Of a stretch of DNA of 64,000 nucleotides, positions 2,429-9,688 are shown one piece after another. Made by a program: the position numbers and the translations under genes. Numbering within the stretch: the stretch's first letter is position 1; each line of letters begins with the position of its first letter. Below the pieces are notes generated by a model. The model was not told where the DNA came from. It worked only from the letters and a program-made list of their open reading frames with translations, and made no database searches. Source of the stretch: an uncultured Limnohabitans sp. (GTDB taxonomy: Bacteria > Pseudomonadota > Gammaproteobacteria > Burkholderiales > Burkholderiaceae_C); the NCBI GenBank assembly GCA_963512655.1, contig CAUPNL010000002.1, positions 112,748-176,747 on the forward strand. The letters are read 5' to 3'.

Positions 2429-2758
2429 ATGTCTGACTACCACGTCACCGTTGCATCCTTGAAATCTTTGGAAACAACCAAGGACGGTGCTGTTGCGTTT
2501 TCAAAAGACACACACCGCACCATGGAAGGTACTCAGCAGGTCAAGTTCCAACAAAAACCGGACACGCTGACGAAACAACCTGCGCGCGTGAAGTTGACCG
2601 ACCTCAATTACTCCATCAACCACGAAGACAAAGCCTTGCACTTGAAAGTCAAAAGCGCCGATGGTGAGGTGGTTCGCGAAGTGGTGTTTGACAGGATTGA
2701 TCCCAGCTTGCTTGATGCGAAGAAGCTCAAAGGCATCTTCATCGATGACAACTCATAA
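2429..2758 (+). CDS. Divergent FlaG-like protein (109 aa)
   Basis: C-terminal LNYSINHEDKALHLKVKSADGEVVREV...LKGIFIDDNS parallels the FlaG pattern (L-x-F-S-I-D...V-K-V...GEVIR...G-L-L-x-D); ATG 2429 preferred over track start 2378. Confidence 0.55.
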   Translation: MSDYHVTVASLKSLETTKDGAVAFSKDTHRTMEGTQQVKFQQKPDTLTKQPARVKLTDLNYSINHEDKALHLKVKSADGEVVREVVFDRIDPSLLDAKKLKGIFIDDNS

Positions 2759-2769
2759 AAACCGTGGCG

Positions 2770-2940
2770 ATGAAAAAGCTACCCAAAATTGAATTGCATC
2801 AGCTGGTGCCATGGGGATTGGCGCTGTCTGCATTGGGGTTCGGGTTGTTGCACACAGATGAGTTCATGAACATCGGCGCCATGCTGCTTCCTCTTGGTTT
2901 GTTGCCCGCGGTCTTTGTATTGTCAAAATACAAAGACTGA
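2770..2940 (+). CDS. Small 56-aa membrane protein, two hydrophobic segments (not in ORF track)
   Basis: MKKLPKIELHQLVPWGLALSALGFGLLHTDEFMNIGAMLLPLGLLPAVFVLSKYKD*; 11 nt after the FlaG-like stop. Confidence 0.6.
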   Translation: MKKLPKIELHQLVPWGLALSALGFGLLHTDEFMNIGAMLLPLGLLPAVFVLSKYKD

Positions 2941-3037
2941 CTTCAAGAGCAGCTCAAACCAAGATCGGAGAAAGTTTTTGCCTTGTTCACCTAGCATGCC
3001 CAAAAATCTGTGTCATAATCTTAGTCTTCTCTCCCGT

Positions 3038-3122
3038 GCCCGGGTGGTGAAATTGGTAGACGCAGGGGACTCAAAATCCCCCGCCGCGAGGCGTGCCGGT
3101 TCGATTCCGGCCCCGGGCACCA
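3038..3122 (+). tRNA. tRNA-Leu, anticodon CAA
   Basis: GCCCGGG acceptor stem, D-loop TGGTAGA, anticodon arm GGGGA-CTCAAAA-TCCCC, long variable arm, GGTTCGATTCC T-arm, encoded 3' ACCA; 85 nt. Confidence 0.98.
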
Positions 3123-3168
3123 TCGGTATCCTTTACCGTCCTGACTCGATAGCGACGCCTTCAAATTT

Positions 3169-4431
3169 ATGAATGACGACGACTTTTCCAACATAGTCAG
3201 AAGTGGTGCTGAGCATCATGTCTCTGTTTCCGAGCACACCGGAAACGCCAAAACCCCAAAAAACATCGTGGTTTCTCATGAAGAAGAGACCGAAGCTCGC
3301 AAGCGCGCATTTGAAGAAAAAGCGCTTGCCGCTTTAGATGCTGAAAAAGCCCTTGCGGCAGCACTGGCAGAACACACAGAGCATATTGCAACTGACGACG
3401 GCGCTGCAGACGCCAACATCCAAAAAGTTGCAGCCAGTCAAGGCGCTGCTAACGTACAAAACGTCACCACCGACAAAATTCAAGACAACATTCAATCGGT
3501 TGGCAACGTCAAAGGAATCGCACCTAATGTGCAAAGTGTCTCATCAGACGCGATCGCGGCCAACCTGCAAAGCGTTGGCGGCAGCAATATCGCGGCCAAC
3601 AAGCAAAACATCGCGGGTGAGAAAGCAATTGAGGCGAATCGCCAAGGCATCCCCACAGATGTCATTACCTCCAATGTGCAGAACATCCCCGTAGGGAACA
3701 TCGTCGCTAACGTACAAGACATCGGCAACGACCCAGCCGCGGCTGCTAATTTGCAAGCGCTTGCCAAAGACGATGTGGCAGTCAATCGCCAATTGCTAGG
3801 CCAAGATGGCAATGCAAAAAACCAACAGGGCATCGCCACTGATGCCAACGGCGCCAATGAACAAAAATTGGCCAACTTAGGTGGGCAAAACAACCAGCAA
3901 ACGCTCAATCAAGATAGCGTCGCCAACAACCAACAAGCCATCCCACAAGGCCCAGGCATAGCTCCCAACAATCAGCCCATCGGTACGGATGCGGCTTCGC
4001 TCAATCGCCAAGCCGCACCTCAAGATGGACCAGCGGGCCTCAACCGCCAAGGTGTGGACAGAGGCAAGATTGAGTCGCACTTTGAGCAACTGCCATCGGG
4101 CGACATCGAACGCAAAAAAGTAGACTTTCCCACCGGCATGCAAAGCGGCAGCACTTCTAGTGCACCTGCAAGCTCAGCCACATCAAGCGCCACCAAGCCC
4201 AGCACCCCTGCGGTGGCAGCACATGCGCCATTGACGGCAGCGGAACAACAGCGACTGGCCAAGCTCAAACGCGAGCAGATGAACGACGCGTTTCATAGCC
4301 GTCTTGCAGGCATCAAACACAACGTAGAGGCACTCAACGGGCGTTTGACGGATTTCGAAGAAAAAGTGCACAAAGAGGATGGCAAACTTGAAAAAGGCAA
4401 TCCGGAAGATTTCGACATCGATCTCGACTAA
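3169..4431 (+). CDS. Hypothetical 420-aa protein with Asn/Gln-rich tandem repeats and predicted coiled ends
   Basis: Long ORF with own terminator; helical N-terminal segment (EEETEARKRAFEEKALAAL), central repeats, Ser/Ala/Pro linker, charged helical C-terminus; no obvious signal peptide. Confidence 0.85.
   Translation: MNDDDFSNIVRSGAEHHVSVSEHTGNAKTPKNIVVSHEEETEARKRAFEEKALAALDAEKALAAALAEHTEHIATDDGAADANIQKVAASQGAANVQNVTTDKIQDNIQSVGNVKGIAPNVQSVSSDAIAANLQSVGGSNIAANKQNIAGEKAIEANRQGIPTDVITSNVQNIPVGNIVANVQDIGNDPAAAANLQALAKDDVAVNRQLLGQDGNAKNQQGIATDANGANEQKLANLGGQNNQQTLNQDSVANNQQAIPQGPGIAPNNQPIGTDAASLNRQAAPQDGPAGLNRQGVDRGKIESHFEQLPSGDIERKKVDFPTGMQSGSTSSAPASSATSSATKPSTPAVAAHAPLTAAEQQRLAKLKREQMNDAFHSRLAGIKHNVEALNGRLTDFEEKVHKEDGKLEKGNPEDFDIDLD
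3412..4074 (+). repeat. 18 tandem 12-13-aa protein repeats, consensus x-N-x-Q-x-[VIL]
   Basis: ANIQKV, ANVQNV, DNIQSV, PNVQSV, ANLQSV, ANKQNI, ANRQGI, SNVQNI, ANVQDI, ANLQAL, VNRQLL, KNQQGI, ANEQKL, NNQQTL, NNQQAI, PNNQPI, LNRQAA, LNRQGV at 12/13-residue spacing (aa 82-302). Confidence 0.9.
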
Positions 4432-4481
4432 TGCCTTGTCACGCATATGCCAGCGTGCGCGCTGAACACTGATTAGGATCC

Positions 4482-4511
4482 ATGCCTGCCTCATCCGCAG
4501 GCATTTTTGTT
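4482..4511 (+). terminator. Rho-independent terminator of the repeat-protein gene
   Basis: ATGCCTGC-ctcatcc-GCAGGCAT followed by TTTTGTT. Confidence 0.7.
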
Positions 4512-4524
4512 TCTGGAGCGCACC

Positions 4525-5646
4525 TTGAGTCACCTCTTTTCTGAATTCACCCTCACCTCGCCACTCGGCCCGCTCACCTTGGCCAATCGCGCCATCGTGG
4601 CCCCCATGTGCCAATACTCGGCAGACAACGGCCAAGCTACCGACTGGCACTTGGCGCATTGGACCAATCTGCTCAACAGCGGGGCCGCCATGTTCATCAT
4701 TGAGGCCACAGCTGTGGTGCCTGAAGGCCGCATCACACCCTTGTGCTTAGGGCTTTGGGACGATGTCACTGCTGCTTCCCTGCAAGACAAACTGCATCGC
4801 GCACGCAAGCTTGCACCTAACGTGCCGGTGTGCATCCAGCTCGCGCACGCAGGCCGCAAAGCATCAAGCGCCGCGCCTTGGCAAGGTGGTCAGTTGTTAA
4901 CGCCTGCACAAGGCGGCTGGGCCACAGAAGCGCCCTCTGCTATTCCTCACTTAGCGCAAGAAACTGCCCCACACGAGCTAGACACTCAAGGACTAGAACG
5001 CATCAAACAAGCATTTGCCAAAGCTGCCCAACGCGCCGAAGCCATGGGCATTGACGCCATCGAGTTGCACGGCGCGCACGGCTATTTGTTGCACCAGTTC
5101 TTGTCGCCCATCGCCAACCACCGCACGGATGCGTATGGCGGCAACTTTGACAACCGCACGCGTTTTCCCATGGAAGTGTTTGAGGCGGCCCGTGCCGTCT
5201 TCAAAGGCTCGCTAGGCATGCGCATCTCGGCCTCCGACTGGGTGGAAAACGGCTGGACGCCTGAAGAAACGGCCGACTTCTCCTTGCGCCTGAAACTCGC
5301 AGGCGCAGACTTTGTGCACATCTCCTCAGGTGGCGTCGCCGCCCAACAAAAAATTGCCTTGGGCCCCGACTACCAAGTGCCCTTCGCCAAATTGGTGAAG
5401 CAAAAGACAGGCATGCCCACCATCACCGTAGGCCTGATCACTGAGCCGCAACAAGCCGAAGACATCTTGGCCCGCGGCGATGCGGACCTGATCGCCTTGG
5501 CTCGCGCCTTCCTCTACAAGCCCCGTTGGGTTTGGGAAGCTGCTGCGGCTTTGAACGGCAAAGTGCAAGCCAGCCCACAGTACTGGCGCTGTATGCCGCG
5601 TGAAGCACAAGGCATTTTTGAGTCAGTGCACATGGGCCAGCGCTAA
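4525..5646 (+). CDS. NADH:flavin oxidoreductase / Old Yellow Enzyme family (YqjM/NamA-like)
   Basis: VAPMCQYSA, QLAHAGRKAS, ELHGAHGYLLHQFLSP...NHRTDAYGG; TTG start at 4525 after GGAG. Confidence 0.92.
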   Translation: MSHLFSEFTLTSPLGPLTLANRAIVAPMCQYSADNGQATDWHLAHWTNLLNSGAAMFIIEATAVVPEGRITPLCLGLWDDVTAASLQDKLHRARKLAPNVPVCIQLAHAGRKASSAAPWQGGQLLTPAQGGWATEAPSAIPHLAQETAPHELDTQGLERIKQAFAKAAQRAEAMGIDAIELHGAHGYLLHQFLSPIANHRTDAYGGNFDNRTRFPMEVFEAARAVFKGSLGMRISASDWVENGWTPEETADFSLRLKLAGADFVHISSGGVAAQQKIALGPDYQVPFAKLVKQKTGMPTITVGLITEPQQAEDILARGDADLIALARAFLYKPRWVWEAAAALNGKVQASPQYWRCMPREAQGIFESVHMGQR

Positions 5647-5690
5647 ACGCAACCCATCACGGTCACGATAAAAAACAAACAGGAGACAAC

Positions 5691-6692
5691 ATGAAACACC
5701 TCACACGTCGCAGCCTTCATGCAAGCCTAGTGGCCACTGCGCTCATCAGCACGGGTGCGTTCTTAGCGCCCATCGCCGCACACGCTCAAGCAGACACTTA
5801 CCCCAGCAAGCCCATCACCTTGGTCGTGCCCAACCCACCCGGCGGCTTGGTGGACACCTCGGCCCGTTTGGTAAGCGAGCCTTTGGCCCGCCTCACAGGC
5901 CAATCGGTGGTGGTGGACAACAAGCCAGGCGGCAGTGGCAACTTGGCCTATGCCAACGTGGCACGCAGCGCCAAAGACGGCTACACCGTGTTGGTGTCGT
6001 ACTCGGGTTATCACATTGCCAACCCCATCTTGATGGACAAGCTGCCGTGGGAGTTGAAAGACCTCACACCAGTGGGCCTCATCACCGTGGCCACCAACGT
6101 TATTGCGGTTCACCCTTCTGTTCCAGCCAACAACTTGAAAGAGTTCATCGCGTGGGCCAAACAAAACCCAGGCAAGATCAACTACGCCTCACAGGGCAAT
6201 GGCTCGGTGTCACACATCGGCACGGAAATTTTCAAGCAACAAACCGGTATTGAAATGACGCATGTGCCCTACAAGGGTTCAGGCCAAGCCATTCAAGACG
6301 TATTGGCAGGACAAGTGCAGGTGTTCATCACCACTCCGCCTTCGGTGATGGGCCATGTGCTCAACGGCAAGCTCAAAGCACTGGCCGTGACCGGCAAAAC
6401 GCGTCATCCACAACTGCCCCAAGTCCCCACCGCCTCAGAAGCAGGTTTGAGTGGCTTTGAATTGGAATCATGGGTGGCCTTGTACGTGGCCAGCGGCACA
6501 CCCAAAGACGTGGTGCAAAAGCTCTCTGCTGATGTCAAGCGAAGCATGGAACAACCAGAAACCAAGCAACGCGCCGATGCTGCTGGCGTGGAAGTGCGCT
6601 ACCTCACACCCGAGAACACCACCAAACTGCTAGAGCGCGACACCGCCAGCTGGGCCAAGGCAATCAAGGCGGGCAACATCAAGTCAGACTAA
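5691..6692 (+). CDS. Bug/TctC-family tripartite tricarboxylate transporter substrate-binding protein
   Basis: Signal peptide, YPSKPITLVVP..PGG..D, NKPGGSG, HVPYKGSGQA motifs. Confidence 0.93.
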   Translation: MKHLTRRSLHASLVATALISTGAFLAPIAAHAQADTYPSKPITLVVPNPPGGLVDTSARLVSEPLARLTGQSVVVDNKPGGSGNLAYANVARSAKDGYTVLVSYSGYHIANPILMDKLPWELKDLTPVGLITVATNVIAVHPSVPANNLKEFIAWAKQNPGKINYASQGNGSVSHIGTEIFKQQTGIEMTHVPYKGSGQAIQDVLAGQVQVFITTPPSVMGHVLNGKLKALAVTGKTRHPQLPQVPTASEAGLSGFELESWVALYVASGTPKDVVQKLSADVKRSMEQPETKQRADAAGVEVRYLTPENTTKLLERDTASWAKAIKAGNIKSD

Positions 6693-7598
6693 GCCGTCTT
6701 TGACGTCTGCGTAGCGCAGCTGCAAACGCAGCTCGCGCTTCATGCGCGTGTTCACCATGCGGCGTGACTCGCTCATGAAACTGAGCTGCATGGCAGGCAG
6801 CTCAGTTTGCGCTTGTTCTCGGCTGATGCGTACCGGTTTGGCCAAGGCATACAAGCCAGCGGCCATATCGAAGTAGTCGCCCATCCTCATTTGGCTGTCA
6901 TCGTTCACGTTGTAAACACGTTGTGGCTTGCCGCGCCAAAGAGCCAATTGACACGCACGTGCCAAGTCGTCAGCGTGGATGTGGTTGGTGAAGACATCGT
7001 CAGCCTGCGCCAGCACAGGCGTGCCGCGCAGCAGACGTTCACGCGGCGTGCCGCCTTCACGGTCAGGCGCATAGATGCCGGGGATGCGCAGCACACTCAC
7101 CCGCACCGCGCTGGAGCGCAAACGGCCCACATGACGCACGCGCGCTTCGGCATCCACACGGCGCTGCGCTCTGGGCGTGATGGGGTTCACCGAGCGGCTT
7201 TCATTCACCCACGCACCTGCGCAATCGCCATACACACCGCTGGTTGAGCCATACACCACACTGAGTGGTGCACTGCGACGCATCAATAAGCGGGTGAGTG
7301 CCAAACTGCGAGGGTCGGTGCTGCCCTGCAAGGGCGGGGGCGCCAAATGCAACACCCGCGTGGCCCAGCCCGCCAAGCGTTGCAAAGAGGCTGGCGCATC
7401 CAAATTACCCACCACAGGTGTCACGCCTTGGGCCCGCAAGGCCTCCACACGGTCTGGGCTAGAGGTGAGCGCCACCACCCGCACATGGCGCTGTACGCGC
7501 ACGACGCGCTGGCCCACATCACCGCAGCCGATGATGAGCAAACGCTCACGTTTGAAGCGAGAAGGCAAAGCGCCGAGGGGGGATTGATGGACAGGCAA
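6684..7598 (-). CDS. NAD-dependent epimerase/dehydratase (atypical SDR, YeeZ-like)
   Basis: IIGCGDVG Rossmann motif, YGSTSGVYGD, LRIPGIY, NHIHADDLA. Confidence 0.85.
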   Translation of the reverse strand: MPVHQSPLGALPSRFKRERLLIIGCGDVGQRVVRVQRHVRVVALTSSPDRVEALRAQGVTPVVGNLDAPASLQRLAGWATRVLHLAPPPLQGSTDPRSLALTRLLMRRSAPLSVVYGSTSGVYGDCAGAWVNESRSVNPITPRAQRRVDAEARVRHVGRLRSSAVRVSVLRIPGIYAPDREGGTPRERLLRGTPVLAQADDVFTNHIHADDLARACQLALWRGKPQRVYNVNDDSQMRMGDYFDMAAGLYALAKPVRISREQAQTELPAMQLSFMSESRRMVNTRMKRELRLQLRYADVKDGLV

Positions 7599-7632
7599 AA
7601 TACACCCTATAAAAGTTCAAGGATACCCAAAG

Positions 7633-8664
7633 ATGAGTTTCAACATCACGGTCCAACCCAGCGGCCGCGCATTCACCGCCACTTCTGACGAAACCTTGCT
7701 GGCCGCAGGCCTGCGCCAAGGCATTGGCCTGCCCTACGGCTGCAAAGACGGCGCTTGCGGCTCCTGCAAGTGCAAAAAGATTTCGGGCGAAGTGACCCAC
7801 GGCAAACACCAAGAAAAAGCCCTCAGCCCTGAAGAAGCGGCCAACGGCTTTGTGCTCACCTGCTGCGCTACTGCGCACAGCGATGTGGTGCTGGAGTCAC
7901 GCCAAGTGGTGGAAGAAGGCGCCTTCCCCATCAAGAAGATGCCCGTGCGTGTGGTCTCGCTGGAGAAAGCCTCACACGACGTGATGATCGTCAAGCTGCA
8001 ACTGCCCGCCACTGACCCGATGAAATTCCATGCAGGTCAGTACGTGGACTTTCTGTTGCGTGACGGCGACCGCCGCAGCTACTCGATGGCCAATGCACCG
8101 CACACCTTTGTTGAAGGCTCTCCAGCGATTGAGCTTCACATCCGTCACATGCCCGGTGGCAAATTCACCGACCACGTGTTTGGCGCGATGAAAGAAAAAG
8201 AAATCCAACGCATCGAAGGCCCACAAGGTAGCTTCTTCTTGCGCGAGGACTCTGACAAACCGTTGGTGTTCTTGGCCTCTGGCACTGGCTTTGCCCCCAT
8301 CAAGGCCATCTTGGAGCACATGCAGCATAAGGGCATCACGCGCCCCGTGACGCTCTACTGGGGTGGTCGCCGCCCTGCAGATCTCTACATGCACAACTGG
8401 GTGCAAGCGCAAGTTGCTGCCATGCCCAACCTCACCTACGTGCCCGTGGTGTCTGACGCATTGCCGGAAGACAACTGGACAGGCCGTACAGGCTTTGTGC
8501 ACGCTGCCGTTTTGCAAGACCAAGCTGACCTCAGTGGCCATCAGGTGTATGCCTGTGGCGCGCCTATCGTGGTCGACTCGGCCCGCGCTGCTTATACGCA
8601 AGCAGGTTTGCCGTCGGACGAGTTCTATGCTGACTCGTTCACCTCTGCGGCTGACAAGCTCTAA
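7633..8664 (+). CDS. 2Fe-2S ferredoxin--NAD(P) reductase (CDP-6-deoxy-delta-3,4-glucoseen reductase-like)
   Basis: PYGCKDGACGSCKC...LTCC 2Fe-2S domain, RRSYSMAN FAD motif, ASGTGFAP, YACG. Confidence 0.92.
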   Translation: MSFNITVQPSGRAFTATSDETLLAAGLRQGIGLPYGCKDGACGSCKCKKISGEVTHGKHQEKALSPEEAANGFVLTCCATAHSDVVLESRQVVEEGAFPIKKMPVRVVSLEKASHDVMIVKLQLPATDPMKFHAGQYVDFLLRDGDRRSYSMANAPHTFVEGSPAIELHIRHMPGGKFTDHVFGAMKEKEIQRIEGPQGSFFLREDSDKPLVFLASGTGFAPIKAILEHMQHKGITRPVTLYWGGRRPADLYMHNWVQAQVAAMPNLTYVPVVSDALPEDNWTGRTGFVHAAVLQDQADLSGHQVYACGAPIVVDSARAAYTQAGLPSDEFYADSFTSAADKL

Positions 8665-8677
8665 ACACGAGACCACC

Positions 8678-9688
8678 ATGCAAAGCCCTCACACATCCCC
8701 ACGCCGCCAATTGCTTCGTCTCTTGCCTGCCTTGTTGAGTTTGGGTGCAGGGTTTTGCATAACAAGCGCGCACGCGCAAAACTTTCCTAACAAACAAATA
8801 CGTTGGATCGTGGTGGCCCCCGCAGGTTCGTCGCTTGACGTCATTGCGCGCGCCATGCAAGACAAGCTCAAAGACAACTTGGGTCAAACCGTTGTCATTG
8901 AAAACAAGCCACAAGCAGGTGGCACCTTGGGCACCAACGAGGTGGCCAAGTCAGCCCCCGATGGCCACACCTGGGTCATGTCGTACAACGGCCCTCTGTC
9001 GTTTGCACCTTACCTGTACCCCAAGCTGCCTTATCAGCCGCTGAAAGATTTGCAACCTGTGATGACCACCACATCGCAACCCAACGTGATTGCGGTCAAC
9101 GCTCAACTGCCGGTGAGCACAATGCGTGAAGCCATTGCGCTGATGAAAACATCGCCTGGCAAATACAACTTTGCATCGGTGGGCAACGGCAGCTCGTCAC
9201 ATTTGACGATGGAGTACATCAAGGCCGTGACCAACACCTATGCGGTACACATCCCCTTCAATGGCAGCCCACCTGCTGTCATGGCCACTATGTCGGGTGA
9301 AACACAGTTCATGGCCTCGGTACCCACCGTGATTGCACCGCAAGTCAAACAAGGTCGTTTGAAATATTTGGCCGTCACCAGCGCACACCGCTATACGTTG
9401 CTGCCAGACGTCCCCACTGTGGCTGAAAGCGGCGTGCCTGAACTCAAAGGTTTTGAAGCTTTGGCATGGAACGGTGTGTTGGTGGCCGCAGGCACACCAC
9501 GCGATGTGGTGGACCGCATCAACAGCGCACTGAACGCAGCCATCCACGATGCCTCCGTGAAAGAACGACTCAAAGCTGCTGGCCTTGAACCCGTAGGCGG
9601 CACGCCCGAACAATTCGCGAAATTGATTCACGACGAGTCCATCAAATGGGCACCCATCATCAAACGATCAGGAGCACGCATTGACTAA
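8678..9688 (+). CDS. Bug/TctC-family substrate-binding protein
   Basis: Signal peptide ending AHAQ, FPNKQIRWIV, ENKPQAGG, GNGSSSHL; ATG 8678 preferred to the 8363 extension. Confidence 0.92.
   Translation: MQSPHTSPRRQLLRLLPALLSLGAGFCITSAHAQNFPNKQIRWIVVAPAGSSLDVIARAMQDKLKDNLGQTVVIENKPQAGGTLGTNEVAKSAPDGHTWVMSYNGPLSFAPYLYPKLPYQPLKDLQPVMTTTSQPNVIAVNAQLPVSTMREAIALMKTSPGKYNFASVGNGSSSHLTMEYIKAVTNTYAVHIPFNGSPPAVMATMSGETQFMASVPTVIAPQVKQGRLKYLAVTSAHRYTLLPDVPTVAESGVPELKGFEALAWNGVLVAAGTPRDVVDRINSALNAAIHDASVKERLKAAGLEPVGGTPEQFAKLIHDESIKWAPIIKRSGARID

Follow-up and report, generated by a model that had tools for sequence, protein, structure and literature searches.

The window analysed here is a stretch of 64,000 nucleotides (nt) from an uncultured Limnohabitans sp. 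(assembly GCA_963512655.1, contig CAUPNL010000002.1, positions 112,748 to 176,747 of the forward strand), and its element of interest is an open reading frame (ORF) at positions 3169–4431. We refer to the product as the NxQ protein, after the N-x-Q motif that recurs at strict intervals through its middle. The protein represents a previously undescribed family without a characterised relative, and we tentatively interpret it as a length-variable tether or scaffold that would dock through its terminal modules at an inner-membrane-associated, possibly flagellum-associated, complex. The features of the locus are listed below, with AlphaFold2 confidence given as the predicted local distance difference test (pLDDT).

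3009–3019, plus strand: extended −10-like element TGTGnCATAAT, about 19 nt upstream of the tRNA
3038–3122, plus strand: tRNA-Leu with anticodon CAA (ARAGORN), 46 nt upstream of the ORF
3169–4431, plus strand: ORF of the NxQ protein, 420 aa, isoelectric point 5.0
3169–3276, plus strand: N-terminal motif, aa 1–36 (MNDDDFSxIVRSGxxHxVSVSEHTGNAKTPKNxVxS), from the alignment
3280–3378, plus strand: N-terminal Ala/Glu-rich helix, aa 38–70 (AlphaFold2, pLDDT 60–85)
3400–4065, plus strand: array of 18 units of 12 or 13 aa, aa 78–299, from motif positions and the unit profile
4075–4098, plus strand: post-repeat motif SHFEQLPS, aa 303–310, from the alignment
4126–4236, plus strand: Ser/Thr/Ala/Pro-rich low-complexity linker, aa 320–356, from composition (AlphaFold2 pLDDT below 50 over aa 321–343)
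4237–4386, plus strand: C-terminal heptad helix, aa 357–406, signature AFHxRLAGIKHNVxxLNxRLxxFE (AlphaFold2, pLDDT 75–92)
4387–4428, plus strand: acidic tail (KLEKGNPEDFDIDLD), aligned in closer relatives only and missing from more distant members
4482–4514, plus strand: terminator-like hairpin and T run (stem 4482–4504, 8 bp with 5 GC pairs, then TTTTTGTTTCT)

The NxQ protein and its family

The anatomy of the NxQ protein is established with near certainty. The chain, which begins with MNDDDFSNIVRSG, is acidic (charge −17) and lacks Cys, Trp and Tyr altogether. Neither a signal peptide nor a transmembrane (TM) segment was found: the Kyte-Doolittle mean peaks at 0.69 over 19 aa and is −0.92 for the first 30 aa, in agreement with the initial annotation, which had noted the missing signal peptide and proposed a cytoplasmic or non-Sec protein. 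N-x-Q motifs start at aa 83, 95, 107, 120, 132, 144, 157, 169, 181, 194, 206, 218, 230, 242, 254, 267, 279 and 292, a spacing of 12 or 13 residues throughout save for one 11/14 irregularity around NNQQ doublets. When the protein was shuffled 10,000 times, N.Q motifs numbered 3.1 on average and 11 at most, against the 18 of the real sequence. Asn and Gln together make up 27% of the repeat region.

Each unit consists of a core, N-[V/R/I]-Q-x-[I/V/L], followed by a spacer of 7–8 residues rich in P/G/T/D/A. Profiling 1,085 units from 83 homologues gave the consensus N-[V/R/I]-Q-x-[I/V/L]-[P/G/A]-T-D-x-[I/L]-A-A, the 13-mers carrying one more spacer residue; 12-mers account for 69% of units. The residue at +4 from Asn is I/V/L in about 93% of 12-mers, so that the regular Asn/Gln units with a following hydrophobic residue, as first described from the sequence, hold across the family. 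Almost half of the units have Arg, Lys or Gln at position 1, and Pro occurs at all spacer positions (5–12) and essentially never in core positions 0–4. The underlying DNA repeats are old: similarity is confined to fragments of 16–27 nt at 67–89% identity, and Tandem Repeats Finder reported no 36–39 nt array at a score of at least 30 in the array DNA. The unit profile keeps its pattern, which bears out the earlier proposal of diverged DNA repeats under selection on the protein. A 37-residue 12-12-13 super-repeat, a hint of a three-sided coil, is present in the NxQ protein and was set aside as not general; relatives contain runs of pure 12-mers as well as of alternating 12/13 units.

Among 5.8 billion proteins we found 83 relatives, all labelled hypothetical, with Limnohabitans sp. 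JirII-29 as the sole named source. They span 253–558 aa and 7–25 units, and unit number changes by gain or loss of whole units. Across the family, 1,219 gaps between motifs measure 12 or 13 residues in 89% of cases, or in 97% when multiples are counted; 8% are multiples with a degenerate unit between and 3% have other lengths. Conservation is far higher at the termini than in the array. The first 36 residues are best conserved, with 16 columns (M1, D4, S12, G13, H16, V20, S21, E22, G25, N26, A27, K28, P30, N32, V34 and S36) invariant in the 46-sequence alignment, in which the linker at aa 320–356 is variable. Helices at aa 38–70 and 357–406 flank the array in the AlphaFold2 model, matching the helical flanks noted at the outset. 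In the C-terminal one, hydrophobic residues at 375, 379, 382, 386, 389, 393, 396 and 400 form a clean 4-3-4-3 heptad pattern, and F375, R378, I382, K383, V386, N390, R392, L393 and E397 are invariant in the same alignment. The presence of R378, K383, N390, R392 and E397 among these suggests a specific partner.

Database searches agreed with the first impression of an unrecognised family. A Pfam scan of the NxQ protein at E values up to 10 gave just two sub-threshold helical matches, scans against NCBIfam, PHROGs and PADLOC gave no significant match, and searches of the PDB by sequence and by profile returned 0 matches; a literature search found nothing on the family. A scan of one genome per GTDB species yielded 35 loci, every one of which belonged to a Limnohabitans, Comamonadaceae or Burkholderiales record. 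When 301 genomes from 201 genera of the GTDB family were sampled evenly, the NxQ family appeared only in the window's own genus, about half of whose genomes carry it, and an order-level sample of 401 genomes contained no long-form member. A second, diverged copy (38% identity) occurs in Limnohabitans sp. Jir61 (NESD01000003.1, locus L061, gene at 8001–9491), where a phage-type integrase is encoded 2.8 kb away and the surrounding small ORFs carry no annotation; such a setting suggests that the gene can travel on a genomic island.

Related modules at the membrane and in a flagellar operon

The window's genome (2.49 Mb, 99.98% complete) also encodes a 669-aa paralogue (G000:C3:94767-96770; locus L009 868-2877, minus strand; also L045), whose gene sits between a sensor histidine kinase gene and tsaD. 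The paralogue combines two TerB domains, eight NxQ units, a motif 'LHREAIAP' that comes after the units and is similar to SHFEQLPS, a helix and a C-terminal TM segment. Its helix, 'RLQNIHEVAEEVNHRLDRFE', agrees with the invariant positions of the NxQ protein helix. By its sequence, the paralogue carries the repeat/HxE/helix module on the inner-membrane face turned towards the cytoplasm. In the family-level sample the full-length form was confined to the window's own genus; in other freshwater Betaproteobacteria, similar TerB proteins contain NxQ units, up to about 17 of them, at a strict spacing of 12.

A profile search of 1.8 billion representatives retrieved more distant relatives of 675–739 aa, which share the N-terminal motif, an array in which N-x-A often replaces N-x-Q, an HxE-LP motif and a C-terminal helix. 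Residues R11, S12, H16, V18, N26, A27 and K28 of the N-terminal motif are also invariant in these proteins, and H304, E306 and P309 of the post-repeat motif are invariant in both subfamilies. Comparison of the C-terminal helix of the NxQ family with the C-terminus of one long homologue (P0148) by hhalign gave a probability of 96.8% (E = 2.3e-10). Three long eukaryotic matches from the profile search (P0120, P0164 and P0199) were rejected as coincidental, being Cys-containing, near-perfect 12-residue repeats that start with N-x-Q; the coincidental eukaryote-like matches include a C2H2 zinc-finger protein and a DEAH11-like helicase with RING-IBR domains. Library scans of the TerB paralogue, of neighbouring genes and of the distant relatives identified only TerB, SPOR and the ordinary families of the neighbours.

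The genes of the 675–720 aa homologues belong to an operon-like row. In it, fliO-fliP-fliQ-fliR-flhB are followed by genes for a TM protein whose C-terminal domain is SPOR-like, for the homologue itself and for a TM coiled-coil protein, with gaps of 51–68 nt between the last four genes. This placement was seen in two lineages whose homologues are mutually just 33% identical. The window's genome keeps the flagellar export row on contig 31 (L060, G000:C31:6000-22000, minus strand), where flhB is followed by the TM/SPOR protein (7071–8552), a 140-aa ORF (6626–7048) and the TM coiled-coil protein (5337–6629). The slot of the homologue is thus taken by the 140-aa ORF, which is repeat-less and ends in a family-like helix, 'WHETLHVRMGKLTDDIHTLNTRLDRLEE'. 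Pfam and NCBIfam scans of these three proteins gave no family name beyond SPOR, and the trio may be an undescribed flagellum-associated set. Co-occurrence with flagella was discarded as evidence, having no discriminating power when FliP is present in 109 of the 121 genomes of the genus.

Structure prediction and candidate functions

We modelled the full-length NxQ protein with AlphaFold2 from a 46-sequence alignment. Residues 74–282 were left without secondary structure at pLDDT below 50, and the flanking helices were confident. Because variation in repeat number scrambles ordinary alignments, a second alignment was built in which 12 units of the NxQ protein were placed in register with 62 fragments of six units each, taken without overlap from the window and about 30 related loci. 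This repeat-only run reached a mean pLDDT of 65 (about 60–65 over the array) with a predicted template modelling score of 0.24. It contained no beta strand, only short helical turns at aa 101–107, 126–128 and 163–165 and helices at aa 175–183 and 189–219, which start at a spacer T/D or D-P and continue through I-A-A-N-x-Q. A Foldseek search of the PDB with the full-length model gave 0 matches, and the hydrophobicity spectrum held only harmonics of 12.3 (6.1, 4.05 and 2.45), with nothing at 3.5–3.7. The array of the free monomer is therefore predicted to be flexible, forming at most short capped helical segments from T/D to IAAN-x-Q, and we consider it somewhat probable that it is not a monomeric solenoid. 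The initial annotation had proposed a beta-solenoid or a functional amyloid, a fold that these computations do not support, and had named disorder of the repeat region, predicted and measured, as evidence to the contrary; predicted disorder is what the computation returned over aa 74–282.

Conserved ends, a variable and flexible middle, a membrane-anchored paralogue and relatives in a flagellar operon together suggest a tether or scaffold. The array, flexible or structured only on assembly, would act as a tether or as a multivalent scaffold whose number of units sets its reach or valency. Related helices in proteins associated with the inner membrane would serve as docking or oligomerisation partners of the C-terminal helix; two candidates are the paralogue of TerB-TerB-NxQ-helix-TM type and the product of the slot gene between the flhB-SPOR genes and the TM coiled-coil gene. 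A further conserved partner would be bound by the N-terminal motif. The analysis shows the anatomy, the pattern of conservation, the predicted flexibility, the common module and the flagellar-operon position of the distant homologues; that the protein tethers, which proteins it docks with and its co-transcription with tRNA-Leu are what we infer from these data, the docking mechanism being the more doubtful element.

Several observations weigh against this interpretation. The flagellar neighbourhood belongs to distant relatives and not to the NxQ gene itself, which in Limnohabitans adjoins tRNA-Leu and an OYE-type flavin oxidoreductase. The 140-aa slot ORF matches the family helix weakly (hhalign probability 29%, E = 5.9e-4), and two 96%-complete genomes carry the NxQ family with no FliP match. 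Co-occurrence of the family with the TerB paralogue is loose: by a hand count of high-quality genomes, 20 have both, 14 the paralogue only, 8 the NxQ family only and 18 neither. The proposed partners are candidates from sequence comparison. The very strict 12/13 spacing is unusual for a purely disordered linker and suggests some regular geometry or structure, and the AlphaFold2 models, computed for a single chain, are blind to folds that form only on assembly, such as the rod trimerised by its coiled ends that the initial annotation envisaged.

The last two points lead to the alternative that survives best, although we regard it as unlikely: an assembly-dependent regular fibre, in which the C-terminal coiled coil, and perhaps the N-terminal one, aligns the chains and the array folds as an oligomer into a stiff rod whose length is given by unit number. 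Such a rod could be a trimeric alpha/beta coiled coil with one beta-layer per 12–13 residues, or a triple-beta or polar-zipper rod. The spacing is strictly kept despite free drift of the spacer sequence. In addition, the 13-mers (N-R-Q-A-I-A-G/T-D-K-A-I-A-P) fit the published register e-f-g/c-beta1-beta2-beta3-e-f-g-a-b-c-d (PMC4786415), a heptad plus a hexad making 13, in which I occupies beta1, Ala beta2 and T/G beta3, position a is hydrophobic (I) and d is Asn. An assembly-dependent rod would explain both the strict spacing and this fit. The segment I-A-T-D-x-I-A-A-N is further reminiscent of the Tcar0761 nonad MATKDDIAN, the array is succeeded by a heptad helix, and the predicted helices begin at the spacer T/D.

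However, two thirds of the units are 12-mers and fall one residue short of the register, and a 7+5 combination lies outside the periodicities accessible to coiled coils (PMC4786415). At the would-be beta2 of the 12-mers, Pro is found more often than any other residue, the a position is polar in the TerB-type relatives, and the hydrophobicity spectrum has no peak at 3.5–3.7. AlphaFold2 monomers of coiled-coil fibres usually show long helices, and none appeared over the array in the full-length model. That the array is a new kind of rod (a natural alpha/beta coiled coil or polar-zipper fibre with one beta-layer or strand per 12–13 residues), nucleated by the C-terminal coiled coil and built in the cytoplasm at a membrane complex, possibly a flagellar one, with its length tuned between species by whole units, is a more specific and still less likely proposal.

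Contact with a surface (the inner-membrane leaflet, for example, or a polyhydroxyalkanoate granule) might instead be what makes the units fold as short amphipathic helices, in the manner of apolipoprotein, late embryogenesis abundant (LEA) or alpha-synuclein repeats and punctuated by Pro or Gly. The weak helical tendency in the repeat-only AlphaFold2 model is in register with the units, and helical-wheel reasoning places the hydrophobic positions 9, 1 and 4 on one face with Gly/Pro at 5 as a break; the TerB paralogue is membrane-anchored, and a phasin gene lies 1 kb upstream in the window. We nevertheless hold a surface coat to be improbable. The invariant residues are the polar N and Q and not those of a hydrophobic face, there are only about three hydrophobic residues per 12, and a charge of −17 is unfavourable on anionic membranes. 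The phasin neighbour is not conserved, being seen in one other locus only, and neither the 12/13 period nor the hydrophobicity peaks at 6.1, 4.05 and 2.45 correspond to the 11-residue, three-turn periodicity of LEA proteins and alpha-synuclein.

Many flagellar export substrates lack Cys and Trp, have a disordered body and end in heptad helices, as does the NxQ protein. It could on this basis serve the flagellar type III export apparatus as a substrate or accessory (ruler-, regulator- or chaperone-like; exported or gate-bound), a role that would also accord with the distant homologues encoded downstream of fliOPQR-flhB, with the flagellate genome and with a unit number that varies as in ruler proteins. 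Yet the NxQ protein has no T3S4/Flg_hook domain (PF02120), and a canonical FliK gene (PF02120) is on contig 10 of the window's genome, so that the NxQ protein is not a replacement ruler. High conservation, as seen at its N-terminus, is not typical of export signals, the paralogous module resides in a tail-anchored cytoplasmic protein, and the family persists in the two 96%-complete genomes mentioned above, which lack a FliP match. Taken together, these points make an export role very improbable.

The monomeric beta-solenoid or functional amyloid stabilised by Asn/Gln ladders fares worst and is the least credible of the readings: N, Q and the hydrophobic residue at i, i+2 and i+4 would line one face of a beta strand, position 4 is mainly beta-branched I and V, and the repeat region is rich in N and Q, but neither AlphaFold2 run drew a beta strand, Foldseek matched nothing in the PDB, position 1 is so often Arg, Lys or Gln, the tail anchor of the TerB paralogue keeps the homologous module on its cytoplasmic side, and the signal peptide, Curlin repeat and linked secretion genes of curli or Fap are missing. 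Solenoid coils of 12 residues do exist, as in the Tenebrio antifreeze protein; the known ones have Cys, Ser or Ala cores, and we know of no 12-residue coil that could bury N, Q and I together. The only CsgG-family gene of the genome is on another contig, in an unrelated lipoprotein cluster. This gene, on contig 23 (L067, G000:C23:33454-36532), encodes a lipoprotein and is followed by two further lipoprotein genes; the cluster is an outer-membrane lipoprotein cluster and not a curli system.

The locus and comparison with known systems

The initial annotation described a standalone gene between tRNA-Leu and its own terminator. The tRNA and the terminator-like hairpin are present as described; the pairing of the gene with tRNA-Leu(CAA) is conserved across the genus, and the gene is therefore probably not standalone. 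In 12 of the 18 loci checked, tRNA-Leu(CAA) lies about 48 nt upstream of the start codon of the homologue, and in a further 4 it is within about 370 nt or is separated from it by two small ORFs. The TGTGnCATAAT element upstream of the tRNA is invariant in all nine aligned loci, distant ones included, and is the probable promoter of the tRNA-Leu/repeat-gene unit; a consensus promoter scan of positions 2700–4700 found no sigma-70 site elsewhere, and the spacer between tRNA and ORF has no recognisable promoter. By this arrangement the NxQ gene would be co-transcribed with tRNA-Leu. The same spacer holds a hairpin, CGGTA-TCCTT-TACCG at 3124–3138, which is kept among closer loci and could be a processing or attenuation element.

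The usual gene order comprises a PALP enzyme (minus strand), variable inserts and then, on the plus strand, tRNA-Leu(CAA), the repeat gene, the OYE flavin oxidoreductase and TctC. A functional link with the downstream OYE and TctC genes was considered and rejected, the arrangement looking like plain vertical synteny. In the window, the PALP–tRNA interval contains the phasin gene (1561–2106; PF09361, E = 7e-9), about 1 kb upstream of the NxQ gene, an ORF that looks FlaG-like (2378–2758) and a 58-aa ORF with hydrophobic stretches (2764–2940). A copy of the phasin with 92% identity occupies the same interval of locus L018, most other loci having no phasin, and a 31%-identical copy of ORF 2378–2758 is found in that of locus L035. 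The FlaG hidden Markov model did not match ORF 2378–2758 even at E = 1, and the canonical FlaG is encoded elsewhere in the genome (G000:C2:45369-45599). A functional link with the phasin or with the FlaG-like ORF was likewise dismissed, both being sporadic inserts between the PALP gene and the tRNA.

If the NxQ protein is indeed a tether or scaffold, it would be an undescribed, rapidly evolving component of the cell envelope or flagellar periphery in Limnohabitans, which is among the most abundant genera of freshwater bacterioplankton, and its species would offer a natural experiment in which proteins differ mainly in repeat number. The combination of N-x-Q-x-hydrophobic every 12/13 residues with an HxE motif and a signature helix is a new sequence module, common to TerB membrane proteins whose own cellular role is obscure. 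Should the array fold on assembly, it would constitute a new fibrous fold of relevance to the structural biology of coiled coils and amyloids.

Of the systems described so far, alpha/beta coiled coils with beta-layers, such as Actinobacillus OMP100 and Tcar0761 with its MATKDDIAN nonads (Hartmann et al. 2016, PMC4786415), share with the NxQ array a short strict period, a hydrophobic-small-Thr-Asp sequence followed by I-A-x-N, and Asn at the would-be core d position; the NxQ array is also flanked by a canonical heptad coiled coil, and its 13-mers fit the heptad-plus-hexad register. It differs in a period of 12/13 instead of 9, in the 12-mer majority that is off register, in the frequent Pro at beta2 and in the lack of predicted helices over most of the array; there is no sequence homology, and a trimer is hypothetical here.

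Curli CsgA and Pseudomonas FapC likewise consist of imperfect tandem repeats with conserved Asn and Gln. In contrast to the NxQ protein, for which we found neither a signal peptide nor a Curlin_rpt match nor predicted beta structure, they are exported by Sec, are built of strand-loop-strand units of about 19–23 residues or more and have dedicated secretion operons. None of csgB/E/F/G or fapA-F lies next to the NxQ gene, whose neighbours are tRNA-Leu, the OYE oxidoreductase and TctC. The Tenebrio molitor antifreeze protein, a 12-residue beta-helix with a disulfide per coil and a small-residue core, matches the period and the presence of one short conserved strand-like motif per unit, whereas the NxQ protein has no Cys and conserves the bulky N, Q and I.

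Among the TerB membrane proteins (PF05099), the paralogue and the TerB proteins of other freshwater Betaproteobacteria contain NxQ units, the HxE motif and the helix; the NxQ protein has no TerB domain or TM segment, and only the repeat/helix module is common to both. A last group comprises the FliK/YscP rulers, the acidic repeats of HubP/FimV and domain II of TolA. The NxQ protein lacks their T3S4, LysM, FimV and TolA domains, and its unit is much shorter and its spacing far stricter than theirs. What it shares with these ruler, hub and tether proteins is an acidic, Cys-free body predicted to be largely disordered, a repeat number that varies between species and interaction modules at the ends, together with distant homologues in a flagellar export operon.

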